This document shows positions 1 to 5,026 of a DNA stretch of 5,026 nt, in pieces. Within the stretch, counting starts at the first letter, position 1, and each line of letters opens with the position of its first letter. Made by a program: the position numbers and the translations under genes. The notes beneath the pieces are model-generated. The model was not told the DNA's origin. It saw only the letters and a program-made list of their open reading frames with translations, and did no database searches. Location: the UHGV virus genome UHGV-0281922. One strand, 5' to 3'. This stretch comes from a virus.

Positions 1-213
1 ATCTTCAAAAGCATAAAATTCTATAAAACATTTTCTATCTGCTTTGAAAGCTTCAAACAAAGTTTTTAAACGTTCAATTCTATCAAAACTATACAATATT
101 CTAATATTTAACACTCCAGGTTCTTTACAATCAAAAAAAGCTGGAAAATCCTCTTCATGTAAAATTTCAAAAAAAGACTGTAAATCTTTAAAATAGTAAT
201 ATGCAAACATCAT
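1..213 (-). CDS. Hypothetical protein, partial in this linear window. The ORF runs off the window start. If the sequence is circular it continues at 5026 and ends at 4982-4984, giving 85 aa.
   Basis: Manual translation of the reverse complement of 1..213 gives MMFAYYYFKDLQSFFEILHEEDFPAFFDCKEPGVLNIRILYSFDRIERLKTLFEAFKADRKCFIEFYAFED with no stop before the window edge. Start ATG is at 213-211 (or 210-208). It is preceded by AAGAGGTG (complement of 221-228) with about 7-8 nt spacing. The ORF is absent from the track only because it is truncated by the window edge. Confidence 0.55.
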   Translation of the reverse strand, partial: MMFAYYYFKDLQSFFEILHEEDFPAFFDCKEPGVLNIRILYSFDRIERLKTLFEAFKADRKCFIEFYAFED

Positions 214-297: not shown

Positions 298-344
298 TTT
301 AGCGTAAAATTAACATTATATTTGGTTTAGTTAATTGATAGGAC

Positions 345-711: not shown

Positions 712-1128
712 CTATGATGTTTTATCATCAACAACTGGTTGTTCCACAGACAGCTCTGGAAGAGTAGTAACATCTTGAGGTTTTTCATAAACAATTCCAT
801 CCTCAATTTGATAATTATCTGGGTTACTACAATATTCAAAAAACTTTTGAGGAGTTCCAAACATTTCTCTTGTCTTTTCATCCAAATGTAAAAACTTTCT
901 CTCAATCTTCGCTTTCTCATTTTGCCAATCTTCAAAAGTCCATGAACTAGTTTCATAATTATTCATATCATAAACTGGAGTTCTCGGAGTTCCTCTATAA
1001 TTTATTAACAATTGTTCTATCTCACACATTGACTTAAATGACTGGTCAGTCAAACTCTCCATTTCATTTACTGTACCACTGATTTTAGGCCAACTTTCTT
1101 TATTCCAATAGGTTGCAAATTTAGTCAT
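712..1128 (-). CDS. 138-aa acidic hypothetical protein, a possible internal scaffolding (VP3-like) protein.
   Basis: ORF from the track. It has a strong RBS AAGGAGG (complement of 1138-1144) 9 nt upstream of the ATG at 1128. It lies 17 nt downstream of the major capsid gene. It is rich in Glu/Asp with an acidic C-terminus (LPELSVEQPVVDDKTS). The function is assigned only from size, charge and position in a microvirus genome. Confidence 0.6.
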   Translation of the reverse strand: MTKFATYWNKESWPKISGTVNEMESLTDQSFKSMCEIEQLLINYRGTPRTPVYDMNNYETSSWTFEDWQNEKAKIERKFLHLDEKTREMFGTPQKFFEYCSNPDNYQIEDGIVYEKPQDVTTLPELSVEQPVVDDKTS

Positions 1129-1145: not shown

Positions 1146-2774
1146 CTATATTCTACCAGCTAAAAGACTTGGATTTGATGAAACAGGTAGAGGTCTAGTT
1201 GCTTTAATATCAAACCAAATATCAGCAATAATATCTGGCTCATCTGGTGCACTTAACACTCTATCTATAGGAGTAGCACATTGAATAAACTCCCCATTTA
1301 ATTTAGGTAAAGTTTCAAATTTTTCTGCCAAATGCCAAACATCAAGAGAACCTTCTACACCACTTCTCATCTTACCAGTAATCTTATTAATACCTTCTCT
1401 TAACTCTCTATATCTTTCTTGATAACCAAATACAGCTTCATTAATTGCTTTATCTGGAGATAAGAAAATTTCTTTATTATATACCGCTTGGTCTCCTAAA
1501 TTCCAAAAAGCAGGATTCATATAATCATACCTAGAAAGCTTATTAAACTTTCTCGCTACACCTTGTTGATATGTTACATCAGCACTAGCACAAGCTACAA
1601 TCATAAATATACCATGTTCCACTGCAGATATCTCGCATAATTCCTTATTACCTTGTCCAACTCCAATCCCTGTAAGATTTCCTTGAGGAGAGACTTCATT
1701 TGTACTTGAATTTTGAACAACAGGATTAACTATTATATCAACATTAGCACTTCCTAAATACTGACTTCTACCTAACAGAAAATCTGGACAAGTTACATTA
1801 TAGTGCATTTTAACCAACTCTGGGTATCTCTCACCAGCTCTTGCATCTCTTTCAAGCAACACTTGTAATGCGCTTGCTTTTCTTAATGCTTCAATAGATA
1901 CTCCAGTTACTTGTGACATATCAGCATATAAATTAGTATTAATACCTTCAATAGCAGTCCTTTTATCAGTATTACTTGTAACTATCTGTCTATTAGTAGC
2001 GTCAGAAATTAAAATAGAATTTTCAAAATTTCCATTACTTAGTTTATAATTCAATCTAGTAGGTTGATTATTAATAGTCACAACAGGAGCATTACCAGTC
2101 AAAGGTATCATCACTTCTTCTCCTGCTTGAGGATAAGGTAAACATGATGTAAAATAATCTAAAGGTTTTCCTTTCTTAAGAATCTTATATGTTACTAAAG
2201 TATCTTTACTTTCTACAGAGTCTCCAGATAAATTATCACCTGTATATTCCTTCAAAGGCTCTTGGAGTTCTGAAGCTCTAAACCAATCATTAAAAATTTT
2301 ATTATAGGCTCTAAAAGGTAAAGCGGATACCGAGTAGTCACAAGTTGTTCCAGTGGGCGGACATCCTAAATAGTCTCCAAGACCACCAACTGTATTCTCT
2401 GCTACTTTCATATTCAATTGAGGTACTAAATAATCTACCTTATCATCTTGCCACTGCTTCTCACCCATAAAATTCAAAAAATGTTTCCATAAAAGTCTGT
2501 TAGGTATCCAAAAAGCCATAAACTTTAATTTAACATTATCCATAACTGGGGAAATCATAGGCATAAGTCTACAAACACTTGCCACGGATACCTCGAAATG
2601 GTCTCCTGGGGATAACTCTTCCCAATATACAGGATAAATATTATCAAAATCAAAACAAGTTTTTAATCCTTCTGATAAATTAAAAGTTGACTTCATACCT
2701 TTTGCTTGTGGTAATATGTTACTATCAAGTATTACCTTATCAGGCATCTTCATACTAAATTGTACATTGTTCAT
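1146..2774 (-). CDS. VP1: Major capsid protein (Microviridae VP1 / phiX174 F-like), 542 aa.
   Basis: ORF from the track. Its size and N-terminal region (FSMKMP...TFNLSEGLKTCFDFDNIYPVYWEELSPGDHFEVS with the PGD motif) are characteristic of gokushovirus-type VP1 capsid proteins. It follows GGAAGGAGAG (complement of 2783-2792). Confidence 0.92.
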   Translation of the reverse strand: MNNVQFSMKMPDKVILDSNILPQAKGMKSTFNLSEGLKTCFDFDNIYPVYWEELSPGDHFEVSVASVCRLMPMISPVMDNVKLKFMAFWIPNRLLWKHFLNFMGEKQWQDDKVDYLVPQLNMKVAENTVGGLGDYLGCPPTGTTCDYSVSALPFRAYNKIFNDWFRASELQEPLKEYTGDNLSGDSVESKDTLVTYKILKKGKPLDYFTSCLPYPQAGEEVMIPLTGNAPVVTINNQPTRLNYKLSNGNFENSILISDATNRQIVTSNTDKRTAIEGINTNLYADMSQVTGVSIEALRKASALQVLLERDARAGERYPELVKMHYNVTCPDFLLGRSQYLGSANVDIIVNPVVQNSSTNEVSPQGNLTGIGVGQGNKELCEISAVEHGIFMIVACASADVTYQQGVARKFNKLSRYDYMNPAFWNLGDQAVYNKEIFLSPDKAINEAVFGYQERYRELREGINKITGKMRSGVEGSLDVWHLAEKFETLPKLNGEFIQCATPIDRVLSAPDEPDIIADIWFDIKATRPLPVSSNPSLLAGRI

Positions 2775-2777
2775 ACC

Positions 2778-2876
2778 TTAAAACACTCTCCTTCCACCTC
2801 TTGTATATGGTACAAAAGCTTGTTGATATAAAAAGGTTCTACTAAATTGTACTCTTCTTGCTCTATTAATTCTCAT
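2778..2876 (-). CDS. 32-aa arginine-rich basic peptide, a putative DNA-binding / packaging protein (phiX174 J-like by position and composition).
   Basis: Manual translation gives MRINRARRVQFSRTFLYQQAFVPYTRGGRRVF, with 8 Arg in 32 aa. The ATG at 2876-2874 is preceded by AAAGGAGAG (complement of 2883-2891) with an 8-nt spacer. The stop TAA at 2780-2778 lies 3 nt before the VP1 ATG. It is not in the track because it is too short. Confidence 0.5.
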   Translation of the reverse strand: MRINRARRVQFSRTFLYQQAFVPYTRGGRRVF

Positions 2877-2893
2877 TATCTTCACTCTCCTTT

Positions 2894-3040
2894 TTATTTT
2901 TCAATTTCTTTAATTGCTTTAACACTACGAGTAATAAATTCAGAAAATGACAAATTGAACTCTTCATCTTTAATATATCCTCCATTCTTTAATTTTCTTA
3001 ATGTATAATATCCAATTACCAAATCAATAACATCTTTCAT
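2894..3040 (-). CDS. 48-aa hypothetical protein.
   Basis: Manual translation gives MKDVIDLVIGYYTLRKLKNGGYIKDEEFNLSFSEFITRSVKAIKEIEK. Its ATG (3040-3038) overlaps the VP2 stop TGA (3039-3037) in an ATGA arrangement. AGGAGA lies about 11 nt upstream, inside the VP2 3' end. The stop is TAA at 2896-2894. Confidence 0.45.
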   Translation of the reverse strand: MKDVIDLVIGYYTLRKLKNGGYIKDEEFNLSFSEFITRSVKAIKEIEK

Positions 3041-3780
3041 TTGTTATAATTTCTCCTTTCTCTATTTTTCTTACTCTCATTCCACCACTTTTTAACAGAA
3101 TTAGCAATATTCTTAGCAGTAGTACCTAAACCAGCCATTCCAGCACTAACAATCCTAGAAGGACTAGAGCCAATATCAGCAACTTTCTCAGTATATTTTG
3201 CATCAGGATTCTCATTATAAAAATCAATATCAAAATCCATCAACTGAATTTTTCTTTTAGCTTCTTCTGTTGACATCTTAACATTCTCTCTTTGAGCTTG
3301 TTTCACCAAAACATTAGCCTTAGCGTCAAGTGTTTGAGCTTCATTTAAAGCCCTAATTGTTTTAGCATTTAATATATTCTGTCTTTGTAACTCTGCTTCA
3401 GTTCTAAGCTTATCAGCCTTTACATCAAAAATACTATTTTCTTGTTTTATTGCCTTTGTCTGTTCATCAATCTGTCTAGCCTGTGCATTTGCTACCTTAG
3501 CAGAAGAAAGAGCGGTCAACCACTGAGGGTCAAACCGCTCAATCTGTGCTTGAGAACCAGCAGGAGTACTTGCTCCACTACTTACATTATCAACCGCAAG
3601 TAAAGGATTCAATCCAGAACTCCTTAAATCTGCCATACGACGACTTATAGAAGTATTACTCATTTGCTCCTGCCATTCTCTATTCTTTTGTGCTTCATCT
3701 TTAGCACTATTATTACCAAGTATTGTTGAAGCAATACCGCCAATAGCACCAGCGATACCGCCAAATAATCCCATAAACAT
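3037..3780 (-). CDS. VP2: Minor capsid / DNA pilot protein (Microviridae VP2 / phiX174 H-like).
   Basis: ORF from the track (3037..3783, where the 3783 codon is GTG). It has a Gly-rich hydrophobic N-terminus (MFMGLFGGIAGAIGGIAS), an SSGLNPLLA motif and a long Q/A/K-rich coiled-coil-like middle. The ATG at 3780 is the stop-overlap partner (TGATG) of the upstream 31-aa ORF. A further ATG at 3774 has ideal spacing to AAGAGGTG (3781-3788). The start is therefore one of 3783, 3780 or 3774. Confidence 0.85.
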   Translation of the reverse strand: MFMGLFGGIAGAIGGIASTILGNNSAKDEAQKNREWQEQMSNTSISRRMADLRSSGLNPLLAVDNVSSGASTPAGSQAQIERFDPQWLTALSSAKVANAQARQIDEQTKAIKQENSIFDVKADKLRTEAELQRQNILNAKTIRALNEAQTLDAKANVLVKQAQRENVKMSTEEAKRKIQLMDFDIDFYNENPDAKYTEKVADIGSSPSRIVSAGMAGLGTTAKNIANSVKKWWNESKKNRERRNYNK

Positions 3781-3875
3781 CACCTCTTAAAAAAGTTTCT
3801 AATAAATCTTATCAATTTAAAAATACCAAATAAAAATACAATTCCTAAAATAGAAAACATTAAACTAATTGACAT
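3780..3875 (-). CDS. 31-aa small membrane peptide (one hydrophobic TM segment plus a basic C-terminus), a candidate lysis/membrane protein.
   Basis: Manual translation gives MSISLMFSILGIVFLFGIFKLIRFIRNFFKR. The ATG at 3875-3873 is preceded by TAAGAGGTG (complement of 3882-3890) with a 6-nt spacer. The stop TGA at 3782-3780 overlaps the VP2 ATG (TGATG). It is not in the track because it is too short. Confidence 0.45.
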   Translation of the reverse strand: MSISLMFSILGIVFLFGIFKLIRFIRNFFKR

Positions 3876-3887
3876 ACATATCACCTC

Positions 3888-3986
3888 TTATGGTAATTGT
3901 AGCACAACTTCTGCTATTTTCCAAAGAAAAAATAAACAACTCATTAATCCCAAGACCATAGCAAAATTTTTAAAGAATGATTCCAT
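3888..3986 (-). CDS. 32-aa small hydrophobic membrane peptide, a candidate lysis/membrane protein.
   Basis: Manual translation gives MESFFKNFAMVLGLMSCLFFLWKIAEVVLQLP. The ATG at 3986-3984 is preceded by a perfect AAGGAGGTG (complement of 3992-4000) with a 5-nt spacer, 54 nt downstream of the Rep stop. The stop TAA (3890-3888) overlaps the RBS of the next small ORF. Confidence 0.5.
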   Translation of the reverse strand: MESFFKNFAMVLGLMSCLFFLWKIAEVVLQLP

Positions 3987-4040: not shown

Positions 4041-4982
4041 TTATCTATTTTTATTCTTAAAAGAATTATAGATTTCTCTTCTAATTTTTCCCTGTTCCAC
4101 ATGATAGTCATATATTTCTGTCCAATGTAAACCATACTTTTGTTGTATCTCCTTATTGGATTCAAAAATATAATCTTCCATTCTCCGTCTATACTCTAAG
4201 TACATTTCATTCAAATGAATATCACTGGAATTTTCAGCATATTTTAAAAAACTTTTAGGAATTCCAAGCTTTTGACCTCTAGAATCATATATAAATCCAT
4301 TAGTCAAAATTTGTTGATAATTTTCAAGAAAATAATCTATTCCTAAAATCTTTTTTGGATATACTACATAAGGTTTTCTTACTACCTTACCATTGACTAC
4401 AAAGTCATCTGATTTAATCTCTGAAAATTTAGTAATATACTTAACCATATAAGGAGCAGTATGTTCATTAACATCTCCAACATCAACAAACCCAGCTTTC
4501 CAAACAGATTCAAGAAATTTTGATTTATAACAATTATAACCTTTCTTTGACTTATAAAAATATTTTAGGTCTGAAGGTTTATAGCCAAACATTATCATAT
4601 GAAAATGAGGTCTACCATTTTTTTCTCCATACTCTCCAGATACTAAATATTTTATTTTACCTTCAAATCCATGATATTCTAACTTCCTTCTAAGTCTCTT
4701 CATAAATTTTTGAAAATAGGTATGATTTAAAGAACCATTAGGGAATACCTCTTCCAAATGTTCATCATCTACTGTAAGAGTTAAAAAACATATCTCATTA
4801 TAACTATATTTTGTAAGTTCATATCTTACTCTTTGAGCAAGTGAAGTCCTCCATTTCTTTTTACACTCTGGACACTTACCACAAGGAACAATAACACTTC
4901 TAGTAATATCAGCATCTTTAGGATTGAACATATATTTATGCTCTGCTCTATCCCAATAGATTTTTAAAGGAGACATACACAT
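4041..4982 (-). CDS. VP4: Rolling-circle replication initiation protein (Microviridae VP4 / gene A-like HUH endonuclease), 313 aa.
   Basis: ORF from the track. It has motif I ICFLTLT, motif II GRPHFHMIMFGY (HUH; the His codons at 4607-4605 and 4601-4599 were verified), and motif III YMVKYITK with two catalytic Tyr. An N-terminal Cys cluster CGKCPECKKK is present. GGAG lies 10 nt upstream of the ATG (complement of 4993-4996). Confidence 0.93.
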   Translation of the reverse strand: MCMSPLKIYWDRAEHKYMFNPKDADITRSVIVPCGKCPECKKKWRTSLAQRVRYELTKYSYNEICFLTLTVDDEHLEEVFPNGSLNHTYFQKFMKRLRRKLEYHGFEGKIKYLVSGEYGEKNGRPHFHMIMFGYKPSDLKYFYKSKKGYNCYKSKFLESVWKAGFVDVGDVNEHTAPYMVKYITKFSEIKSDDFVVNGKVVRKPYVVYPKKILGIDYFLENYQQILTNGFIYDSRGQKLGIPKSFLKYAENSSDIHLNEMYLEYRRRMEDYIFESNKEIQQKYGLHWTEIYDYHVEQGKIRREIYNSFKNKNR

Positions 4983-5026
4983 TACTCTTCAACTCCTATA
5001 ACATTATATCTAATACTTAAATACAT

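Follow-up and report, generated by a model that had tools for sequence, protein, structure and literature searches.

All recognisable genes of the window, by which we mean the whole stretch of DNA analysed (5026 nt, 31% GC), lie on the minus strand. The genes and features that surround or make up the short open reading frame considered here, ORF32, are the following:

4982..4041, minus strand: Rep/VP4
3037..3783, minus strand: VP2, DNA pilot protein (PHROG pilot-protein families, 5e-26)
2894..3040, minus strand: ORF48, 48 aa, MKDVIDLVIGYYTLRKLKNGGYIKDEEFNLSFSEFITRSVKAIKEIEK, between VP2 and ORF32
2885..2892, minus strand: SD sequence of ORF32, AAGGAGAG, 8 nt 5' of its ATG
2778..2876, minus strand: ORF32, putative VP8/J-class basic peptide gene, 32 codons (ATG 2876-2874, TAA 2780-2778)
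2853..2876, minus strand: ORF32 codons 1-8, MRINRARR, the Arg-rich N-terminus; putative ssDNA-binding part by analogy with SpV4 VP8 and phiX J
2781..2801, minus strand: ORF32 codons 26-32, RGGRRVF, the C-terminal motif; putative anchor into a VP1 pocket
2786..2795, minus strand: SD sequence of VP1, GGAAGGAGAG, within ORF32 codons G28-V31
1146..2774, minus strand: VP1, major capsid protein, 542 aa (Pfam Phage_F, 2e-135), the putative partner of ORF32
1128..712, minus strand: VP3 scaffold (Chlamy_scaf match)

A preliminary description of this DNA had drawn attention to an arginine-rich peptide of 32 residues encoded directly upstream of the major capsid gene, leaving its strand unstated. Such a peptide is indeed encoded there, on the minus strand. 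The product of ORF32, MRINRARRVQFSRTFLYQQAFVPYTRGGRRVF (32 aa, 3.98 kDa), contains eight arginines (25%) and neither aspartate nor glutamate, and the net charge is +8. The other particulars given in that description, namely the arginine content, the SD sequence and the end of the reading frame 3 nt before the capsid gene, are all present in the sequence: the TAA codon of ORF32 is followed by GGT and then by the VP1 ATG at 2774. The ribosome-binding site of VP1 had likewise been placed correctly in the 3' end of ORF32, where GGAAGGAGAG occupies codons G28-V31. A longer form of ORF32 with a GTG start at 2885 (35 aa) was considered and rejected. Because this GTG falls within the SD sequence and the extension is unconserved in the relatives (several carry a stop one codon 5' of the ATG), the gene is taken to be the 32-codon ATG form; GGAG(G) precedes the ATG in every relative. 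Rfam had no match anywhere in the 5026-nt window, a terminator scan of the window found none, and promoter-like matches in DNA of 31% GC are uninformative.

By its protein matches, the genome is gokushovirus-like. VP1 matches the PDB capsid chains 8DES ('Major capsid protein', 3e-115) and 9CGM ('Capsid protein VP1', 9e-71), VP3 belongs with Chlamy_scaf, and VP2 falls in pilot-protein PHROGs. In alignments, VP1 of the window is 43% identical to that of EC6098, 40% to that of Chp2 and 32% to that of SpV4. The gene order in the ORF32 clade is VP4-VP2-ORF48-VP8-VP1-VP3, where ORF32 stands as VP8. Six relatives retain ORF48, at 36-83% identity and with 12 residues unchanged throughout the alignment; the gene often overlaps the stop codon of VP2 as well as the start codon of ORF32, and it matches nothing in Pfam or PHROG.

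Two further small reading frames of the window deserve mention in their own right. Between Rep and VP2, at 3888-3986 on the minus strand, lies a hydrophobic peptide of 32 aa, MESFFKNFAMVLGLMSCLFFLWKIAEVVLQLP, which is found in nine relatives and always ends in LQLP; it had no PHROG match and may be a small membrane protein or serve in lysis. The second ORF, about 85 aa long and beginning MMFAYYYFKDLQ, spans the ends of the window (1-213 and 4982-5026, minus strand), and its stop overlaps the Rep ATG. The relatives have an ORF of 81-100 aa at the same place. Its only PHROG match is weak (phrog_6245, E=0.006), and it may be VP5-like. A reading frame that runs across the window ends and is matched in relatives supports the view that the window is a complete circular genome.

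Relatives of ORF32 were collected from several sources. A tblastn search of the peptide against GenBank phages located ORF32 in five Microviridae records, in all of which it is unannotated and lies in a gap ending at or just before VP1. Further copies came from four IMG/VR genomes, from a fifth at 52% VP1 identity and from one MAG contig, and seven more 32-aa protein clusters of the ORF32 type were obtained from Logan/ENA assemblies. The last were recovered with a 40-aa query consisting of ORF32 and eight upstream non-coding codons; the 32-aa peptide as a query against 1.8 billion proteins gave no match at E<=0.001, being too short for significance. A degenerate DNA pattern scan of IMG/VR returned the four known loci (one re-listed as L014), and an alignment-based VP1 scan of the same database yielded L067 as the single addition. 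Two other candidates of the pattern scan, L013 and L015, were discarded as chance matches in high-GC contigs, where TRR had matched TGG.

In every copy ORF32 has exactly 32 codons with conserved ATG and stop, down to 52% VP1 identity. Thus the short basic ORF upstream of VP1, for which the preliminary description had proposed that related genomes be inspected, is present in all of those examined. The consensus is MRxNRARRxQFSKTFLYQQQFVPYxRGGRRVF, with 13 invariant positions, and the N-terminus is basic across the relatives, reading either MRxNRARR or MATQ[RK]xK/RQ. Peptide identity follows that of the capsid protein: relatives with a VP1 identity of 74-80% have 72-84% in the peptide, and those with 52-55% have 50-59%.

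Some of these relatives are integrated in bacterial DNA. Two of the 32-aa clusters come from bacterial contigs of 2.26-2.27 Mb and others from contigs of 9.4, 25.8 and 45.7 kb, and the relatives in question are prophages of about 5 kb with the gene order of the window (L016:5600-10520, L019:5430-10550, L023:3600-8700, L026 and L027). The neighbour of each is a gene for a XerD-like tyrosine recombinase, whose 3' end faces the prophage; after this gene comes one for a pseudouridine synthase. As a scan of genome contigs revealed no named isolate genome with a close relative, the host was identified from the genes that flank the prophages. In clusters built at 90% identity, the host proteins encoded beside the prophages group under the names Fusobacterium sp. 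and F. necrogenes, which points to Fusobacterium as the host and fits the 31% GC of the window. Kirchberger et al. 2022 do not mention Fusobacteria in their main text. On both sides of the prophages stands a direct repeat with the core CCACATATAATGTTAATT, whose two copies lie 4986 nt apart in L016 (5464-5527 and 10450-10513) and 5191 nt apart in L019 (5272-5354 and 10463-10545). The right-hand repeat of L019 is within an inverted-arm site, CCAAATATAAT-GTTA-ATTATATGTGG, and the window itself carries CAAATATAATGTTAATT at 324..308 on the gene (minus) strand. The repeat core together with the inverted-arm site suggests integration of the Xer/dif (IMEX) type, as described for enterogokushoviruses (PMC7062461).

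The preliminary description had stated that gokushovirus-type phages are generally held to lack J. This does not agree with the literature, in which VP8/ORF8 is a separate small gokushovirus gene described as a J analogue (PMC11281519, PMC11980548, PMC9239249). VP8 is reported inside the capsids of SpV4 and phiEC6098; in SpV4 it lines the wall of the capsid and adds to a beta-sheet of VP1, and Phe38, its last residue, is buried close to the 2-fold axis in a hydrophobic pocket of VP1 (PMC11281519). Structural conservation among VP8 and J proteins is confined to the last four residues, and the N-terminus has been linked to DNA binding (PMC11281519).

ORF32 resembles VP8 at its C-terminus. The known proteins end in SNPRGGRRF (SpV4 VP8), IMRGGIRF (Chp2 ORF8), AMRGGIRL (phiMH2K ORF8) and SMRGGIRL (EC6098 VP8), and phiX174 J ends in WYVGGQQF. 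The ending of ORF32, PYTRGGRRVF, is the VP8 motif R-G-G-x-R-[F/L/I/M]-COOH with one inserted residue. In the 16 family members R26, G27, G28, R29, R30 and F32 are invariant, and position 31 is V or L. Such an ending is rare by chance: RGGxR(x)[FLIM] followed by a stop is expected 0.0017 times per dinucleotide-shuffled genome copy in six frames, and it terminates 6.9e-5 of the composition-preserving shuffles of the ORF32 peptide. Moreover, in the circularised genome ORF32 is the only small net-basic ORF of at least 20 aa on the gene strand.

The same ending is widespread. We surveyed 35 gokushovirus-like prophage/MAG loci, with VP1 30-43% identical to that of the window; a small basic ORF ending in RGGx[RT][LIM] was found in 24, and a 25th locus, L032, which is a close relative of the window, has an ORF32-type peptide ending in RGGRRVF. 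Four GenBank gut microvirus genomes also have a canonical VP8 ending, of the form PMRGG[IF]R[LIM] or NMRGGTRL, in genes that are unannotated: L068:4880-4999 (MG945561), L069:4745-4864 (MG945711), L070:~4995-5111 (MG945703) and L071:2176-2295 (MG945135). Under-annotation of VP8 thus appears to be general and not specific to the ORF32 clade.

Other features are shared by the two groups as well. Gokushovirus VP8s are, like ORF32, small (27-44 aa), strongly basic, free of acidic residues and encoded by a separate gene; in both, the C-terminal RGGxR leads to a hydrophobic or aromatic last residue, and F-S-[RK]-T in mid-sequence is a possible second shared motif. In EC6098 and the gut gokushoviruses VP8 follows VP2, as ORF32 does. 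The differences are nevertheless appreciable. The tail of ORF32 is one residue longer (GG-x-x-x-F versus GG-x-x-F/L), its length is 32 aa where VP8s mostly have 37-42, its family has 5-7 aromatic residues against 1-3 in VP8, and the family carries a net charge of +8 to +10, low for VP8s, which span +8 to +19. In addition, ORF32 abuts VP1, whereas the surveyed VP8s are hundreds of nucleotides or more away, with the exception of one locus (96 nt; see below). On the side of the presumed partner, Tyr83 of SpV4 VP1 is one of the aromatic residues beside the VP8 C-terminus (PMC11281519); the corresponding VP1 position in the ORF32 clade is Met or Phe, hydrophobic too.

Neither ORF32 nor its homologue in L005 matched any Pfam or PHROG family at E<=10, whereas phiX J, run as a control in the same searches, matched PF04726 (1.7e-16) and phrog_2354 (2e-28). 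The VP8 family phrog_10695 recovered its controls from Chp2 (6e-19), phiMH2K (8e-8) and EC6098 (2e-10), but SpV4 VP8, which has been built into capsid density, is missed by this profile as well, so that the profile does not cover the whole VP8 family. A PDB profile search with the ORF32 family alignment gave no J or VP8 chain; its top match, the archaeal ribosomal protein uL4 ('fvPfaRGGRR', E=0.67), was set aside as chance. In hhalign the ORF32 family aligned with 26 VP8s at P=0.0098 over 26 columns, with F-S-[RK]-T and RGGxR in register and a probability of only 4%. Under a canonical-VP8 HMM the ORF32 family scores no higher than composition-matched shuffles, and the reverse test was marginal (best 0.002-0.01, median not significant). 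As these scores are not significant overall, full-length homology of ORF32 and VP8 is not claimed, although it is plausible. Of the comparison with J and VP8 families that the preliminary description had suggested, the outcome was accordingly mixed: the J families PF04726 and phrog_2354 and the VP8 family phrog_10695 were negative, and the VP8 C-terminal motif was found.

We assign ORF32 a probability of about 0.8 of being the VP8/J-class DNA-packaging protein of its clade, an assignment made from sequence comparison. It is called VP8-type because of the motif, the genomic context and its status as the sole candidate. It is probably the functional and evolutionary counterpart of gokushovirus VP8/ORF8 and an analogue of phiX174 J, and it most likely represents not a new kind of gene but a known class, of which it is a divergent member that lacks annotation.

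Several other explanations have to be weighed against this reading. The preliminary description had itself named one that would undo it, namely that the region functions only as the 5' leader and ribosome-binding site of VP1, with a fortuitous ORF conserved through constraint on the RNA and the SD sequence. The position of GGAAGGAGAG within the last codons of ORF32 would fit, as would the lack of annotation in five out of five GenBank relatives. The substitution pattern does not. Among 16 distinct DNA versions of ORF32, the columns that vary at codon positions 1, 2 and 3 number 17, 16 and 28 of 31, an excess at the third position. Read in frame, the versions give a pooled pN/pS of 0.38, compared with 1.59 and 1.64 for the two shifted frames, and the ORF32 frame is the only one open in all 16. 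Serine 12 is encoded by AGT or by TCA/TCC and arginine 26 by AGA or CGT, synonymous switches that take more than one step. The motif RGGRR[VL]F is kept both in L002, which encodes GGRR as GGT GGT AGA CGT and so has no AGGAG, and in L005, whose VP1 has an SD sequence of its own and starts 64 nt 3' of ORF32; the constraint is thus on the ORF32 protein and not only on the VP1 SD sequence. With the fixed length of 32 codons, the ATG and stop conserved in all relatives and no Rfam match, a mere leader is strongly disfavoured and highly improbable. ORF32 is a genuine gene; it is conserved, and purifying selection acts on it as strongly as on VP1, for which pN/pS in the same genomes is 0.335. A gene may also be conserved for the act of its translation, as a regulatory upstream ORF that couples or attenuates VP1 synthesis and whose peptide is dispensable. 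The stop of ORF32 lies -1 to +3 nt from the VP1 start in 14 of the 16 relatives, often as TAATG, and the SD sequence of VP1 is inside ORF32, both in keeping with such a role. Yet 13 residues invariant down to 52% VP1 identity, selection equal to that on VP1 and a VP8 C-terminal motif would be unexpected in a dispensable peptide, and coupling is compatible with a structural role too; we regard the purely regulatory explanation as very unlikely.

The remaining two alternatives accept the protein and question its kind. ORF32 could be a true homologue of the J protein of Bullavirinae, acquired or retained together with the J-F arrangement. J of phiX174, G4 and alpha3 (PF04726, Microvir_J) is located, like ORF32, directly 5' of the major capsid gene; the two are of similar size and high basic charge, lack acidic residues, have comparable endings of the form GG...F-COOH and are presumed to serve alike, at 60 copies per virion, in packaging the DNA and neutralising its charge. 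But the tail of ORF32 is GGxxxF (GG-R-R-V-F) and that of J is GGxxF (GG-Q-Q-F), the motif is RGGRR as in VP8 and not WYVGGQQ, PF04726, phrog_2354 and phrog_3780 gave no match at E<=10, and no intermediate sequences linking ORF32 to J profiles were found. The rest of the genome is gokushovirus-like, with a Chlamy_scaf VP3 and a VP1 43% identical to that of EC6098; compared with the phiX174 type it has gokushovirus-type VP1 and VP3 and is without the external scaffolding gene (D) and the spike gene (G). Common descent with J is therefore scarcely credible, given that a VP8-type RGGxR(x)F ending without a J-family match points to a relocated VP8 and not to an extra J. Alternatively, ORF32 could be another basic protein, resembling VP8 at the C-terminus only, for instance a cement lining the capsid, an assembly factor, or a nucleic-acid-binding protein aimed at the host. 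This would suit the aromatic middle QFS[KR]TFLYQQ, the low charge and high aromatic content in comparison with VP8s and the lack of significant profile homology, and in SpV4 the VP8 protein, too, runs along the capsid wall, where it extends a beta-sheet of VP1 (PMC11281519). On the other hand, the genome offers no other candidate for a DNA-binding peptide, and the C-terminal anchor motif common to both speaks for the same site on VP1, so that we consider a different function unlikely. In another, non-model microvirus, Ebor (Tainavirinae), the basic virion protein Gp10 has been suggested as the charge-neutralising VP8/J analogue (PMC11980548); it has 145 aa and overlaps the 3' end of Rep, in contrast to ORF32 with its 32 aa and its place beside VP1.

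The place of ORF32 in the genome invites the comparison with J. In phiX174, J (848-964) does lie directly 5' of F (1001-2284), as the preliminary description had stated. In gokushoviruses the position of VP8 is variable: it follows VP3 in Chp2, VP5 in phiMH2K, and VP2 in EC6098 and in the nearest gut gokushoviruses outside the clade, and the VP2-then-VP8 order of EC6098 is also that of the ORF32 clade. In the prophage survey the distance of VP8 from VP1 was 700-1500 nt when it came after VP1 and 700-2400 nt when it came before, the exception being L061. In this Bacteroidetes MAG contig (CAWAID010000006.1) a VP8-type ORF ending in IPRGGIRM (L061:36-164) was observed 96 nt 5' of VP1; since the VP1 of L061 is only about 32% identical to that of the window, adjacency of VP8 and VP1 may have arisen more than once. 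The order VP4-VP2-VP1, which the ORF32 clade has, is the hallmark of Pichovirinae according to Roux et al. (PMC3394797), and all six gene orders occur within Family 3 according to Kirchberger et al. (PMC9239249). Given this variability, the 'J position' of ORF32 is better seen as another permutation than as the acquisition of J. Thus, of the earlier suggestion of a J-like gene in the J position of a gokushovirus, the packaging role stands as the best reading, and the additional J gives way to the VP8 of the clade, moved to a new place.

The anatomy of the junction allows a model to be proposed for ORF32 as a packaging protein of the VP8 type. The abutting stop and start, together with the VP1 SD sequence inside ORF32, suggest that the two genes are probably translationally coupled. 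ORF32 would be translated from the same late transcript as VP1, and ribosomes that terminate on ORF32 would probably re-initiate on VP1. Coupling of this kind would favour matched output of the two proteins, both of which would be needed at 60 copies per T=1 particle. During packaging, the C-terminus P-Y/W-x-R-G-G-R-R-V/L-F-COOH would enter a hydrophobic pocket of VP1 that faces the capsid interior, on the model of the final Phe of SpV4 VP8 and J. The ssDNA would be contacted and in part neutralised by MRINRARR and the remaining basic residues, and would in this way be tethered to the wall of the capsid; 60 copies at +8 each would supply about +480 charges for 5026 phosphates. Incorporation into the virion, contact with the VP1 pocket and DNA binding are in this way inferred by analogy with the better-known proteins.

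A more specific version of this model is possible, and we put it forward tentatively. ORF32 may be a remodelled VP8 that acts mainly as an aromatic tether lining the capsid, not as a polycationic condenser, and that has moved beside VP1 and become coupled to it, forming a convergent J-F module. The charge of only +8 and the lengthened C-terminal anchor are the reasons for considering it. If it were true, the J-F arrangement would have been re-created independently in a temperate, Fusobacterium-infecting, gokushovirus-like lineage, and this would imply selection for 1:1 co-production of the capsid protein and the DNA tether.

VP8/J is regarded as a core microvirus gene (PMC11980548), and genomes of the ORF32 clade would otherwise seem to be without one. 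The assignment of ORF32, which belongs to no Pfam or PHROG family and is unannotated in all five GenBank relatives, would thus fill a gap in annotation. The RGGxR(x)-hydrophobic end provides a practical means of finding VP8 where profile HMMs fail, SpV4 included. Apart from its gene order and annotation, ORF32 would be an ordinary microvirus component, and the juxtaposition of VP8 and VP1 would represent a small, testable convergence in gene order with the J-F arrangement of phiX174.
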